Part shown: positions 12,427-44,641 of the stretch, piece by piece
Numbering within the stretch: the first letter of the stretch is position 1
How the letters are laid out: each line of letters begins with the position of its first letter
Assembly: GCA_000004695.1 (NCBI GenBank)
Contig: CM000151.3
Span: 3,648,001 to 3,712,000 of the forward strand
Direction: 5' to 3'
Length of the DNA stretch: 64,000 nt
Source: Dictyostelium discoideum
Lineage: Eukaryota
The notes under the pieces: generated by a model
What the model saw: only the letters and a program-made list of their open reading frames with translations
What the model was told of the DNA's origin: nothing
Databases searched by the model: none
Translations under genes and position numbers: made by a program

Positions 12427-16424
<3,998 letters not shown>

Positions 16425-16881: not shown

Positions 16882-19419
16882 TTATAGAGCATCAGAATTT
16901 GAATCTAATTCAACAGATTGACTGTCTCCATTTTCATTTTCCTGTCTAGTTTCATATTCCATATTTGAGGAAGCTTTTACTGAAATATTATTTGTAGTTG
17001 AAGAGTTATTAGAATTTGAAGATTTTGCAGTTGTTGTTGCATTTGTGAATTGTTCAATCTTTTGTCCAATGAATACAACGAAATAGTTATATTTCCAAAT
17101 TTGAAGGGTTTTCTTGGAAATACCATAAATGATAAATGCATAAACACCAAAAACTCTAATACTGTAAATAAAATAACCTAATCCAGTAATATCTGGGGCC
17201 TTTAATAGACAATCATTGGTGGAAGTACTTGTTAAAAGACATAGTGCATAAGATGGTATGGAATCGGTATAAACGTGCATATGATTATTAATCCATTGAT
17301 CATAAATAAATAAATATAAAAGACAAGAAAAATACATAATTAAACTAATAATTGGTTTTGCTTCCATTTTCAATACTTTAAATCTAGATTCTTTTGTTGA
17401 TTGGACATTACCAGATACAATCTTTTTTTATTTTTTTATTTTTTATTTTTTCAAAACATTAATAAATATAAAAAAAAAGTGAATTTCTAATAAAATAAAT
17501 ACTTACAACATAAATTTCTCTCATTAAAAGAATTAAAAATACACCACCTAAACATAAAAATATACCCATTGGCAACCAAAATGCAAACCTTCTATAGTTA
17601 AAAGTTGTTAACCAACAAAATGGATTTGCTGGTCCACCTGAATATTCATTCTTTGATATTGACACAATTGGTGGTATCCATGCTATAATTAATGATGCTA
17701 CTAAATAATAAATAAATCTATCTTTTTGTTTTTTTCCAACTATAATTTAAATATTTAAAATAAATTATATTTTATTATTTTTAGAGAAAACAATAATTAA
17801 TAATAAATAATTAATAATAATTAATAATAATTAGTAATAGTTAATAATAGTTAATAATAGCTAATAATAATTATAATTAATATAACTAATAAATAATTAA
17901 TAATAATTAATAATAAAATAATAATTTACCTTGGAAAATTGTAAACCATACTTCAAAAGAGAGTACACACCACCATTGAACTACTAAAAGTGATGATCCA
18001 TGTAAAAGAAATCCTAATTTTTAAATTTGATTAGTTAAAATAAAATAAATATATAAGGTTATTTATTTTTTTTTTTCTATAAAAAAAATTTACCTGTTGC
18101 AACACACATCCTATCTATATATGAAGCAAAACGTCCATCTTCTGGACATAATGTATTTTCAGTCCCATTAAAGGTCATTAATGCACCAGAAAATGCTTGA
18201 AGGAAAATACTGGATAACAACATAACATTGATTTTATCGAATCTTGAAACTTTTGGGTTAATAATTCCCAATGTAATTACTAAAAATAATGTTAATATAC
18301 ATGATAAAATTGATAATACATCTGATAATCTATATATATTCCTCCATTGATTTGCATAATATCTTTATAAGTTAATAAAATATATTGTGAAAATAAATTT
18401 ATTATTAATATAATGTAATTGGGGAGAGAGAGTTATAAAAAAAATTAAAAGTATATTAAAATAATAAAAAAAATACAGACAATGGTGCAGGACATCCCAC
18501 TACACAAGTTGTATTTGTAGATGGGAATATATAACCTATTGATTTATCATGAATTTCATCAGTTGAAACATGATAAACTAAAGGTTCAAAACATTGTTGA
18601 ATTGATGTATTTTGAGAATTTGCAATAAGATCTGTGTTTTCACATGTATTTGTATAGCTTAAACTATCAATTTGATAGGTGGTTGTATTTTTTGGAAATA
18701 CTGAATAAGAAATATTTTCAAATGTATATTTAGTTGCGCAACTTAACCTAGATGTTGAAATTTGACATGATGTTGTCATATTTAAACAATTGTTATAACA
18801 AGGTAAAATTGGATATGCATAGGTTACTTTTGAAACTGGATCTGTATATTTTTCACATTCTGGAAAAAGCTAAAAATAAAAATAAAAAAATAAAAAAAAG
18901 TAATTAATAAATGTGAGATATAAATAGAAAAAAAAAAGAAAATTTAATTACTTACAAAAGCACACAGTAAAGCAAAAGTACGAGGATTTTTACAAGATTC
19001 GAATGATTTATAGAAATTAATATATTGACGAACTAAATTACCTTGTGCTTGAATAGCTTCTTGACTTGATGTTGAGTTTATATAAATACTATCTTTTTTT
19101 TTTTTTTTTTTTTTTTTTACACAAAGATTTAAAACATATAAAAAAATTTATAAAAATAAAGAAAATTAATAAAAAAAAAAACTAACAACATGGATTTGAT
19201 AAAGAGCCATCCCATAATAAAAAAATAAAAAAAAATAAACTACTAACTTGGATTTGATAAAAAGCCATCACATAACTGGATCCCTGGACTATCACCCCTA
19301 TATTTTTGACATGTGGCACCTTTATCTAGTGGAAAGTATTGAGATTTAGCAACGTCACCGAAATATAAAATAATAAAAAAAATATAGATAATTGGTAAAA
19401 GATTTTTATTTGAGACCAT
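16882..19419 (-). CDS. Frizzled/Smoothened-like 7TM receptor (fsl family) with an N-terminal cysteine-rich Fz domain, about 607 aa. Seven exons: 19248..19419, 18956..19092, 18481..18869, 18094..18362, 17930..18013, 17507..17739, 16882..17421.
   Basis: A signal peptide, then a CRD with conserved Cys spacing (CQKYRGDSPGIQLCDGF, CKNPRTFALLCAF, PECEKY...CYNNC). Seven predicted TM helices. The C-terminal KTLQIW matches the Frizzled KTxxxW motif. It is clearly paralogous to the 42459..44641 gene, residue for residue across exon junctions. Phases close to 1824 nt in total. One donor is the non-consensus GTCTGT, chosen because it restores the paralog alignment CPAPL|YYANQW versus NPVPLYTNEQW. Confidence 0.7.
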
Positions 19420-19909
19420 GACTGTTCGCAAAAATTATTGGAGTTATTGCAAATATAATGAATAAAAAAAAAAAAAAAAAAATTGATTTGATCATTTTAT
19501 TATAAAAAAAAAAATTGATTTGATCATTTTATTTTTAAAAAAAAAAAAAAATTTTAAAATAAAAATAAAATAAAATAAAAATAAAATAAAAAAAATATCT
19601 CCGAGCAGTGAAAAAAAAAATTTTAAAAATAAAAAAAAATCTTGGCTTTATCATAATCAAAAAAAAGATGGAATGTCTTTATTGACCCCCAAATAAAATG
19701 TTTAGAAAAAGAAATGATTAAAAAAAATATCTATATTAATTGAATAACAAATTTATTTTTGCATTTATATTTAAAAAAAACCCAATTCCGTTTTATTTTA
19801 CAATTTTTTTTTTTTTATTATATGATTAGCTTTTTTTTTTTTTCTTTTTTTTTTTCCCCAAAAGGTATATTACTATAAATTATTAACTATACACAAATAT
19901 TATTGATAA

Positions 19910-23699: not shown

Positions 23700-25811
23700 T
23701 TATTGTTTTGAAATGTTTACTAAATTTTCAGAAGTCATACCTAATTGTTTCATAACGGCATTACCTGGTGCAGACATACCAAATCTATCAATACCAATGA
23801 CTTTACCATCAAGACCAACATATTTATACCAGAATGAAGTGACACCAGCTTCCATAGCGATACGATTTCTACAACCACTTGGAAGTACGGATTGTTTGTA
23901 TTCATTTGATTGACGATCGAAAAGTTCAGTGCATGGCATAGAGACGACACGAATATCATCACCTAATAATTTAGCGGCTTCAACACAATGTTGAACTTCT
24001 GAACCAGTGGCAATTAAGATCATTCTTAATGGAGCGGTTTCACTAACGACAATGTAACCACCTCTGAGAGTACCTTCTCTCTTCTTTTGAGCGGTACCTG
24101 GGAGGAATGGAAGATTTTGACGAGTTAATGATAAAAGGGTTGGACCATCGGCACGAGCATAAGCCAAAGAGAAAGCAGCAGCTGTTTCTTCTGGATCGGC
24201 TGGACGAATGACATCCAAGTTTGGAATCATACGAAGACCTGAAACGGTTTCAACTGGTTGATGAGTTGGACCATCTTCACCAACACCAACAGAGTCATGA
24301 GTGAAAATGTAAACTACTGGTAAATGTGAGAGAGCAGCCAAACGGATGGCTGGACGAAGATAGTCTGAGAATACCAAAAAGGTGGCACCTGAAACTTTGA
24401 AAAGACCATGGTAGGCGATACCATTCATCATGGCACCCATAGCATGTTCACGAATACCAAACTTAATATTACGACCAGTTGGACAAGCTGGTGTGAAATC
24501 TCTACCCTCTTTGATGTAATTCAAGGTGGAGCCATGTAAATCGGCACTACCACTGACTGATAATGGGAGGTATTGAGAGATTGGTTGTAAAACGTCGCTA
24601 CCAGCCTTACGAGTGGCAATGATTGGTGTGGTTGGGAACTCTGGGATTTGTTTCATGATATCGATAGCTTCGTGTTTTTCATGAGCACTTTCCAAGAGTT
24701 GGGCAAGCTTTGGATTGGCAGATTTCCATTCGGCAAAGGTTGCTTGCCATTCTTGGTAGAGCTTTTCTAATTGTTTTTCATGTTGTTCAAAGTATTGTCT
24801 GGTTTCACCGCTGACAAAGAATTTCTCTTCTGGGAGACCGAGATTCTTACGAGCGGAATCGATAAATTTAACACCAGCTTCACCATGACCTTTATTGGTA
24901 CCAGCAACCTCTGGGATACCCTTGGCGATTGTAGTCTTACAAATGATGATTTGTGGTTTACCGGATTTGGAGTGTTTAGCATTTTGATAGGCGTTGATTA
25001 ATGAGCCAATGTTGTTACCTTCTAATACTAATTGTACTTCGAATCCAACACTTTCGAATCTCTTTACGGCATCCTCTGATTGGGTTTCAATTGCCATAGC
25101 ATCCAATGTGACATCGTTTGAATCGTAGAATACGATCAAGTTATCTAAACGATGATGACCAGCGAATGAAATGGCCTCTTGTGAAATACCTTCTTGTAAA
25201 CAACCATCACCAACTAAAACTACTACCTTTTGATTAAAGATTTGATGTTGTTCAGTATTGAATTTACCTGCTGCCATTTTACATGCTGATGCAATACCAA
25301 CGGCATTTGCAATACCTTGACCTAATGGACCAGTGGTAGCTTCAACGCCTGGTGTGTCATGAAATTTTGGATGACCTGGTGTCTTTGAATTTAATTGTCT
25401 GAAATTTTTAATATCTTCAATTGAAACATCATATCCTGATAAATGTAACCAACTATATAAAAACATTGAACCATGACCTGCACTTAATACAAAATAATCT
25501 CTATTTAACCATCTTGTCTTTATTTATTTAAAAAAAAAAAAAAAAAAACAAAATAAAAAAATAATAATAAAAATTTAAATATATAAATATAAGTACTTTT
25601 TATTAAAATTTATATTTTTTTTTTTTTTTTTTTTTTTACATACATCTTTTGGGTTATAGATCAATGAATTACCAAATAATGCAGCACCAATTTCAGCAGA
25701 ACCAAGTGGTAAACCTAAATGACCAGAGGCAGCTTTGGCAACTGCATCCATGCTTAAACCTCTAGTTTCATTTGCTGCTCTTTCTAATGCTTTAAAATCA
25801 ATGTTTGACAT
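23700..25811 (-). CDS. tkt: Transketolase, about 661 aa. Two exons: 25644..25811, 23700..25517.
   Basis: Exon 1 reads [56 protein letters not shown], ending at donor GTATGT. Exon 2 reads [31 protein letters not shown]...[29 protein letters not shown]...[17 protein letters not shown], with canonical TK thiamine-diphosphate and catalytic-loop motifs. Confidence 0.85.

Positions 25812-42458: not shown

Positions 42459-44641
<2,183 letters not shown>

Follow-up and report, generated by a model that had tools for sequence, protein, structure and literature searches.

Two frizzled and smoothened-like genes of Dictyostelium discoideum AX4, fslJ and fslM, lie within one 64,000-nucleotide (nt) stretch of chromosome 2 (the window; G+C content 22.3%, a value typical of this species) and raise the question of how related genes came to differ so much in exon number. 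The fslJ coding region (16882..19419, minus strand) contained 7 exons and 6 introns and specified Frizzled and smoothened-like protein J, a product of 607 amino acids (aa). The fslM coding region (42459..44641, plus strand) contained 4 exons and 3 introns and specified Frizzled and smoothened-like protein M, a product of 623 aa. An earlier note on this DNA had read the two genes as a clean case of intron gain or loss within a recent paralog pair. The comparisons presented here suggested that the difference of 7 versus 4 exons very likely reflects several independent old losses plus younger gains, which accumulated on two old lineages. Five introns were discordant between the genes: two were ancient introns that were lost on the M lineage, two were probably gained on the J lineage, and one was an old intron found on the M side only. 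The broader idea in the note, that these genes are Frizzled/Smoothened-like seven-transmembrane (7TM) paralogs whose intron numbers differ through gain and loss, was borne out.

The exon models of both genes were rebuilt from three-frame translations. In exact-sequence look-ups, the spliced 607-aa product was identical to XP_644364.1/XP_645050.1 and to the UniRef entry "Frizzled and smoothened-like protein J," and the spliced 623-aa product was identical to UniProt Q556N7.2, FslM. Both database proteins were from D. discoideum AX4 and its 8.48-Mb chromosome 2 record. Public databases already contain the two genes with their exon models, and both genes are members of the D. discoideum family 5 (Fsl/Fsc) set of G protein-coupled receptors (GPCRs), which consists of 25 genes (PMC10445921, PMC5821085).

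Age and relationship of fslJ and fslM

A pairwise alignment of FslJ and FslM showed 30% identity and 33 gaps over 570 columns; hence, the description of the two proteins as aligning residue for residue was overstated. The identities of FslM to other D. discoideum relatives were 57% (FslL), 41% (FslK), 33% (FslH), and 29% (FslC). A neighbor-joining (NJ) tree of 15 sequences with 100 bootstraps recovered a clade of the form ((((FslM, FslL), D. purpureum P0023), P. violaceum P0024), FslK), with 92-100% support, and a second clade that joined the FslJ orthologs to FslH with 96% support. FslC and the H. album protein P0028 fell outside both clades. The FslJ orthologs of D. discoideum and D. purpureum were still 63% identical, which, set against the 30% identity of FslJ and FslM, argues that the J/M split is much older than the speciation that separated D. 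discoideum and D. purpureum. As judged from the alignments and the tree, fslJ and fslM are ancient rather than recent paralogs, and they are not each other's closest relatives.

The two genes are divergently oriented, and the suggestion that they are recent duplicates, one of which merely gained or lost three introns within a single exon, draws on their location on the same chromosome about 23-25 kb apart, on the conservation of this linkage in D. firmibasis, and on the shared positions of introns 1 and 2 and the shared 137-nt exon 2. Set against these features were the 30% identity and the presence of a closer paralog elsewhere for each gene (FslL for FslM and FslH for FslJ). Furthermore, about 10 unrelated genes, including those for a transketolase and a TerD-domain protein, separate the pair; genes for AP-3 beta adaptin, a kinase, TFIP11, and an RGS protein were also found between or around them. 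The intron sets were also not nested, because four introns were private to fslJ and one was private to fslM. We consider a recent duplication to be already refuted by the identity values and the tree, and the probability that we would still assign to it is minute. The earlier note had proposed to check its reading with a family phylogeny onto which intron positions were mapped. When this was done with the NJ tree and 13 mapped genes, a clean recent pair was not what emerged: the five discordant introns showed at least three separate histories, and the fslJ/fslM pair is thus unsuitable as a clean example of intron gain or loss.

A tblastn search with both proteins detected no fsl copies in the window beyond fslJ and fslM. 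When wider paralogs were sought with FslJ (E≤1e-10) and with a 15-sequence profile, only the five close FslJ orthologs were returned, and the profile search added nothing to the FslJ search. FslJ and the GenBank FslM model each had two EAL and two XP accessions, all of which were on one chromosome 2 record, and an inverted duplication of chromosome 2 is known in the Ax3/Ax4 lineage (PMC2643946). Because the accessions are doubled on a single record, we infer that the window lies inside the AX3/AX4 duplicated segment. If so, the truly recent paralogs of fslJ and fslM would be their own identical duplicate copies.

Intron positions across the family

The intron map comprised 13 genes of the family, drawn from seven dictyostelid species, and used the genomic loci of 11 genes beyond fslJ and fslM. 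Proteins were placed exactly on the DNA with a splice-aware exact matcher, the introns were then set on a MAFFT alignment, and intron positions were named by FslJ residue number and phase. Position J58.1, which corresponds to intron 1 of both genes, was occupied in 12 of the 13 genes, the exception being P. violaceum P0024. Position J104.0, which corresponds to intron 2 of both genes, was occupied in the J, M, and K genes, P. violaceum P0024, and T. lacteum P0026, and it was vacant in FslH, H. album P0028, and D. purpureum P0023. Introns 1 and 2 were thus inherited from the common ancestor of fslJ and fslM.

The third and fourth introns of fslJ had a much narrower distribution. Intron 3 (18480-18363, minus strand; 118 nt, GTCTGT..AG, phase 2) follows residue 232 and lies immediately 5' of transmembrane segment 1 (TM1), and intron 4 (18093-18014, minus strand; 80 nt, GTAAAT..AG, phase 1) interrupts codon 323 at the start of TM3. 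The corresponding positions, J233.2 and J323.1, were occupied only in the FslJ genes of D. discoideum, D. citrinum, D. dimigraforme, and D. firmibasis. Neither position was occupied in the other nine genes, namely, D. purpureum FslJ, FslH, FslK, FslM of two species, D. purpureum P0023, P. violaceum P0024, T. lacteum P0026, and H. album P0028. Under the gain criteria of Logsdon, as applied by Ma et al. 2015 (PMC4683709), the phylogeny was clear, with both introns in 4/4 crown FslJ orthologs and in none of the nine outgroup genes. Since one gain each, as opposed to at least five losses each, would account for this distribution, introns 3 and 4 are probable lineage-specific gains. They would have been inserted in the FslJ gene after its separation from FslH and, by parsimony, after the D. 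purpureum split. We put the chance at about even that two new spliceosomal introns arose in fslJ within the group-4 Dictyostelia after the D. purpureum lineage had split off.

A different pattern was observed with the fifth and sixth introns of fslJ. Intron 5 (17929-17740, minus strand; 190 nt, 5.8% GC) is of phase 1, interrupts codon 351, and carries an AAT-type microsatellite; intron 6 (17506-17422, minus strand; 85 nt) is of phase 0 and follows residue 428, past TM5. Position J351.1 (intron 5) was occupied in FslJ of D. discoideum, D. citrinum, and D. dimigraforme, as well as in H. album P0028, P. violaceum P0024, and T. lacteum P0026, and it was vacant in the M lineage, FslK, FslH, D. firmibasis FslJ, and D. 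purpureum FslJ. Position J429.0 (intron 6) was occupied in all five FslJ orthologs, FslK, P. violaceum P0024, and H. album P0028, and it was vacant in the M lineage, T. lacteum P0026, and FslH. The alignment was gapless around J351.1, J391.2 (the fslM intron 3 position), and J429.0, and fslM itself was gapless relative to its intron-bearing relatives at J351.1 and J429.0. Because position and phase were shared and the alignment was gapless, J351.1 is an ancestral intron that was lost repeatedly. Both introns 5 and 6, which share position and phase with introns of outgroup genes, are ancestral, and both were removed on the lineage leading to FslL/FslM after its split from the P. violaceum ortholog. 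The removal may have proceeded through recombination with reverse-transcribed mRNA, a mechanism put forward for Dictyostelium (PMC4683709).

The remaining discordant intron was intron 3 of fslM (43765-43926, plus strand; 162 nt, phase 2), which has a GC content of about 3% (3.1%), contains (AAT)n, and lies directly 5' of the conserved CW in extracellular loop 2 (ECL2). Its position, J391.2, was occupied in FslM of D. discoideum and D. firmibasis, D. purpureum P0023, P. violaceum P0024, and T. lacteum P0026, and it was vacant in the FslJ clade, FslH, FslK, and H. album P0028. This intron dates back at least to the split from Tieghemostelium, and its distribution could reflect a loss in the FslJ/FslH branch or a gain on the FslK/L/M side.

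Two of the FslJ orthologs showed further changes at or near the intron 5 site. In D. firmibasis fslJ (P0014, L002 2292-2608), one 317-nt exon corresponded to the 84-nt and 233-nt exons that flank intron 5 in D. discoideum. The junction read CAAG/TTGG, with TTTTTCAAG and TTGGAAAAAAAC exactly joined; that is, intron 5 was precisely excised and the flanking coding sequence was left intact. In the case of D. purpureum fslJ (P0016), a 76-nt intron (L001 2811-2886) was located at J346.0, in phase 0 after ...FEIW. The ancestral intron 5 site, in phase 1 and following ...FTIFQ, was 14 nt farther downstream and was itself uninterrupted. The D. purpureum J346.0 intron could be explained either by intron sliding or by a loss followed by a nearby gain. 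The first exon and the 570-nt first intron of the D. purpureum model looked doubtful, as its N terminus was not signal-peptide-like.

The fslJ models of D. citrinum (P0013, L008 2392-2623) and D. dimigraforme (P0015, L009 2654-2897) omitted 14 and 13 codons, respectively, at intron 5. The omitted codons, VGKKQKDRF[IL]YYL[IV], were left out through the choice of a downstream acceptor. The D. discoideum-type acceptor, AG followed directly by TTGGAAAAAAAC, and the omitted codons were intact in both genomes, and the two models are probably mis-annotated at this acceptor. Most of the sequence of fslJ intron 5 (17792-17926) and fslM intron 3 (43790-43900) was AAT/ATT microsatellite, and intron 5 of D. 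citrinum was a near-pure (ATT) run of about 45 repeats. The lengths of fslJ intron 5 and fslM intron 3 are driven by repeat expansion.

Intron turnover of this kind has been described in D. discoideum, in which Ma et al. 2015 counted 441 precise intron losses versus 40 putative gains; loss in Dictyostelium was 3'-biased, adjacent introns tended to go together, and a reverse-transcriptase-mediated mechanism was favored (PMC4683709). FslH, which retained only its 5'-most intron, fits recombination with reverse-transcribed mRNA because such loss is 3'-biased. The family examined here resembled the published data set (PMC4683709) in its precise deletions, in its 3'- and adjacent-biased loss, as seen when FslH kept intron 1 alone, and in its rare putative gains, for which no source sequence was recognized in the window. 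It differed in that the published work compared 1:1 orthologs in five genomes, whereas we compared members of a multigene family and had access to the newer group-4 genomes of D. firmibasis, D. citrinum, and D. dimigraforme. A look-up of Table S1 of Ma et al. (PMC4683709) by D. purpureum gene number or intron coordinate found no fslJ-like entries, which, without DDB_G identifiers, is not proof of absence.

The preponderance of losses in D. discoideum, where loss is roughly 10 times more common than gain (PMC4683709), would favor an account in which the family ancestor already had all seven intron positions and each vacancy arose by loss. Recurrent parallel loss is indeed evident for intron 5, in at least five lineages. 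For introns 3 and 4, however, such an account would require at least five losses each (in H. album P0028, the K/L/M clade, T. lacteum P0026, FslH, and D. purpureum FslJ), with survival in a single crown clade that had 100% support, and neither position was found in any mapped gene outside that clade. We therefore regard universal loss as improbable. An earlier gain, in which introns 3 and 4 entered the FslJ stem before the D. purpureum split, is a more serious competitor, although still a doubtful one. D. purpureum would then have lost introns 3, 4, and 5 jointly, in one cDNA-conversion event, and would later have gained the J346.0 intron. In favor of this scenario, exactly the three adjacent introns 3, 4, and 5 were missing from D. 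purpureum FslJ, an intron was present at J346.0 instead, and adjacent introns tend toward joint loss in Dictyostelium (PMC4683709). The price of this scenario is a larger number of events than a gain after the D. purpureum split would need, including a further gain at nearly the position of the old intron 5.

Several points weigh against the account that we favor, namely, old losses on the M lineage combined with younger gains on the J lineage. The lack of introns 3 and 4 in D. purpureum could be a secondary loss of several introns, which would make the gains older. A blastn search for source sequences, in which all nine introns were compared to the window, yielded only low-complexity AT-rich or poly-A matches and was uninformative. 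The NJ tree of 15 sequences was a simple one that did not resolve T. lacteum P0026 (33% bootstrap support), so that either polarity may apply to fslM intron 3. The gene structures of FslL and FslC were outside the intron map and did not enter the gain/loss reconstruction. In addition, some of the ortholog models are automatic predictions, and the D. citrinum and D. dimigraforme models are probably wrong at the intron 5 acceptor, as noted above. Finally, the support for the splice junctions comes from annotation, homology, and sequence logic rather than from RNA.

Exon models and splicing

Two homologous genes, each predicted to encode a cysteine-rich domain (CRD) as well as a 7TM region, were present where the earlier note had placed them, and its counts of seven fslJ exons and four fslM exons, including an 872-nt fslM exon, were reproduced by the rebuilt models with exact translations. 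Exon 1 of fslJ (19419-19248; 172 nt, end phase 1; all fslJ features are on the minus strand) encodes a signal-peptide-like hydrophobic segment and the start of the CRD. It is followed by intron 1 (19247-19093; 155 nt, GTTAGT..AG), exon 2 (19092-18956; 137 nt, end phase 0), intron 2 (18955-18870; 86 nt, position J104, phase 0), and exon 3 (18869-18481; 389 nt), which encodes the remaining CRD and a linker. The membrane-spanning region is divided among exon 4 (18362-18094; 269 nt; TM1-TM2 and extracellular loop 1), exon 5 (18013-17930; 84 nt; TM3), exon 6 (17739-17507; 233 nt; TM4, ECL2, and TM5), and exon 7 (17421-16882; 540 nt with the stop codon), the last of which encodes TM6, TM7, the sequence KTLQIW (residues 532-537), and a Ser/Asn-rich tail.

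On the plus strand, fslM consists of exon 1 (42459-42606; 148 nt, end phase 1), intron 1 (42607-42688; 82 nt), exon 2 (42689-42825; 137 nt), intron 2 (42826-42892; 67 nt), exon 3 (42893-43764; 872 nt), which extends from the C-terminal part of the CRD through ECL2, and, after intron 3, exon 4 (43927-44641; 715 nt with the stop codon), which encodes TM5-TM7, the sequence RAFKIW (no KT), and a tail. The first two exons had been described as identical in length and phase. This was correct for the length of exon 2 and for the phases of introns 1 and 2 (1 and 0, respectively), but exon 1 was 172 nt in fslJ and 148 nt in fslM. The 872-nt exon of fslM had been equated with four fslJ exons; instead, it covered exons 3, 4, and 5 in full but exon 6 only as far as its first ~121 nt. 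At that point in exon 6 lies the site of fslM intron 3, which has no fslJ counterpart, and intron 6 of fslJ in turn falls inside exon 4 of fslM.

The public models of fslM conflict at intron 1. The fslJ entries (XP_644364/XP_645050) and the fslM entry (Q556N7) of dictyBase/UniProt were identical to our proteins, and only the GenBank fslM model (XP_644375, 639 aa) departed from them. In that model, an acceptor at 42640 yields a 34-nt intron, and the 16 additional residues AYTSIINFLKKNKNKK are included relative to UniProt Q556N7.2, which uses the acceptor at 42688; the intron 1 acceptor was the sole difference. The D. firmibasis FslM ortholog had the same 148/137-nt exon pattern as the UniProt model. 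This ortholog and the fslJ alignment support the UniProt model, with its 82-nt intron 1, over the GenBank model.

All 9 introns of the two genes were of the GT-AG type, with GC contents of 3-14%. If any one of them were read through, an in-frame stop codon would be encountered within 1-15 codons, and with the exception of fslM intron 3, none had a length that was a multiple of three (118, 80, 190, and 85 nt for fslJ introns 3-6). Thus, the predicted open reading frames require the splicing of all nine introns. The GTCTGT donor that the earlier note had called non-consensus was found at 18480-18475, in fslJ intron 3. Its +3 position is indeed weak, but the intron is still a canonical GT-AG intron, and the orthologs have GTTTGT or GTAAGT at this site. 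An alternative intron 3 donor located 4 nt downstream (GTATTT) was considered and rejected; with this donor, the frame would shift, and PAPLYY, which matches the uninterrupted sequence of D. purpureum, would be lost.

One could argue that the additional fslJ introns are artifacts of the exon model and that the frame is kept in some other way. The pyrimidine at the +3 position of the intron 3 donor would be in line with this idea, as would the fact that the fslJ and fslM models rest on sequence, not on transcripts. It is countered by the stop codons found in every intron on read-through and by the frame-breaking lengths of fslJ introns 3-6. It is also countered by the curated protein, to which the fslJ model corresponds, and by the spliced FslJ sequence, which was gapless at each junction relative to the uninterrupted coding sequences of D. 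purpureum FslJ and FslH. Conservation provided another line of evidence. The junctions of introns 3 and 4 were conserved at the nucleotide level in four species, and the lengths of the flanking exons and the protein were kept, whereas the introns themselves drifted in sequence and in length regardless of frame (118/96/135/92 nt for intron 3 and 80/70/87/70 nt for intron 4 in the four FslJ species). The annotation of the D. firmibasis gene models used mRNA-seq and manual checking (PMC11193728). Thus, it is very unlikely that the extra introns are left unspliced, as the earlier note had said would overturn its model, and we attach next to no weight to an artifact.

A tandem duplication with a 58-nt period (2.0 copies, 85% match) spans the exon 1/intron 1 junction of fslJ (19155-19275, minus strand). 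Through it, the last ~27 nt of exon 1 and the 5' splice site recur within intron 1, copy A being GATGGCTTTTTATCAAATCCAA followed by GTTAGT and copy B being GATGGCTCTTTATCAAATCCATGTTGTTAGT. Use of the resulting decoy donor, near 19190, would bring in stop codons. The duplication was specific to D. discoideum, as it was not found in intron 1 of D. citrinum, D. dimigraforme, or D. firmibasis, and it explains why intron 1 is longer in D. discoideum (155 nt) than in D. citrinum (98 nt).

Receptor class, surroundings, and implications

The predicted FslJ and FslM proteins each contain a signal peptide, a cysteine-rich Fz-type domain, a linker, and a 7TM bundle. With single sequences, the Pfam Fz matches were weak (E value of 2.5e-5 and 25.3 bits for FslJ and E value of 0.007 and 17.4 bits for FslM), and both were under the 32.1-bit gathering score; an Fz match at E≤1 was found in 15/15 family members. 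A family profile of 15 sequences performed better in comparisons to solved structures. It matched Smoothened with an E value of 1e-14 over profile positions 222-487 and Frizzled-4 with an E value of 6e-9 from the CRD into the 7TM region, and its N-terminal part matched the Fz domains of ROR2 (5.5e-5) and MuSK (5.4e-4). The evidence for an Fz-type CRD was therefore convincing at the profile level and weak at the single-sequence level. Cysteine columns C37, 50, 101, 108, 127, 131, 138, and 147 of the CRD were invariant. Pfam PF01534 was matched by only 3/15 relatives and had no match in FslJ or FslM.

The hydropathy profile of FslJ showed an N-terminal signal-like segment and seven TM segments. 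The AlphaFold model of FslJ had a mean predicted local distance difference test (pLDDT) score of 74.8, with values of >85 over most of the 7TM region. When this model was used in a Foldseek search, PDB ranks 1-33 were all Smoothened (SMO) or Frizzled (FZD) structures, with E values from 2e-13 to 6e-6 and target-normalized template-modeling scores of up to 0.78. In Frizzleds, the KTxxxW motif that follows TM7 is the Dishevelled-binding motif. The FslJ sequence KTLQIW fits this motif, and the aligned site in FslM, RAFKIW, does not. The earlier note had listed NPKV, the CRD cysteines, and a C-terminal KIWK as motifs common to both proteins; NPKV and the cysteine columns were found in both, but KIWK occurred only in FslM, and FslJ has KTLQIWKY. 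Only FslJ and FslK have been reported to keep KTXXXW (PMC10445921), and mutant phenotypes in the Fsl/Fsc set have been reported only for fslA, fslB, fslK, and fscE (PMC5821085, PMC10445921).

Taken together, the profile and structural comparisons indicate that FslJ and FslM are divergent class F-type receptors, as already annotated. They resemble the animal class F GPCRs (Frizzled 1-10 and Smoothened) in having an N-terminal cysteine-rich Fz-type domain followed by a 7TM bundle, in profile and structural top matches that were all SMO/FZD, and, for FslJ, in the KTxxxW motif after TM7. They differ from the animal receptors in that FslJ is only 13-19% identical to the solved receptors, the Pfam Fz matches of both proteins are below threshold, PF01534 is lacking in both, and FslM has no KTxxxW. 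Dictyostelium is not known to possess Wnt or Hedgehog ligands.

Some features of the surrounding DNA were also observed. Immediately 5' of the fslJ start codon (19472-19547) was a 32-nt direct repeat with 2.3 copies and a 95% match (unit ATAAAATGATCAAATCAATTTTTTTTTTT on the gene strand), which might represent a promoter element that was duplicated. The G+C content of the window peaked, at 35% versus 22% overall, in the stretch with the transketolase open reading frame (ORF; 23700-25466, minus strand), which presumably belongs to a highly expressed housekeeping gene. Positions 14001-16424 had a GC skew of -0.61 and an AT skew of +0.45; this region contains ORFs downstream of an ORF with a protein-kinase domain (13169-14818), and ATA-, ACA-, and CAA-type triplet repeats were found at 16015-16331. 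The composition bias of 14001-16424 probably reflects homopolymeric Asn/Gln/Thr coding tracts. A tRNA scan found no tRNA genes in the window.

The results described here concern known genes and a known kind of intron turnover, in which ordinary change accumulated over a long time. They have little consequence for receptor biology, and differences in intron number between ancient paralogs are routine. For annotation, the comparative data back the UniProt model of fslM over the GenBank model and the D. discoideum-type intron 5 acceptor over the current D. citrinum and D. dimigraforme annotations. Few intron gains are well documented in Amoebozoa, and for the study of intron turnover in that group, fslJ may be of modest interest, as it combines two candidate lineage-specific gains with one precise loss and one displaced intron. 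If the gains are true, two of them would have occurred in a single gene, in a genome in which only about 40 putative gains have been counted, and fslJ would provide a compact natural series for the birth, movement, and death of introns in an AT-rich genome.

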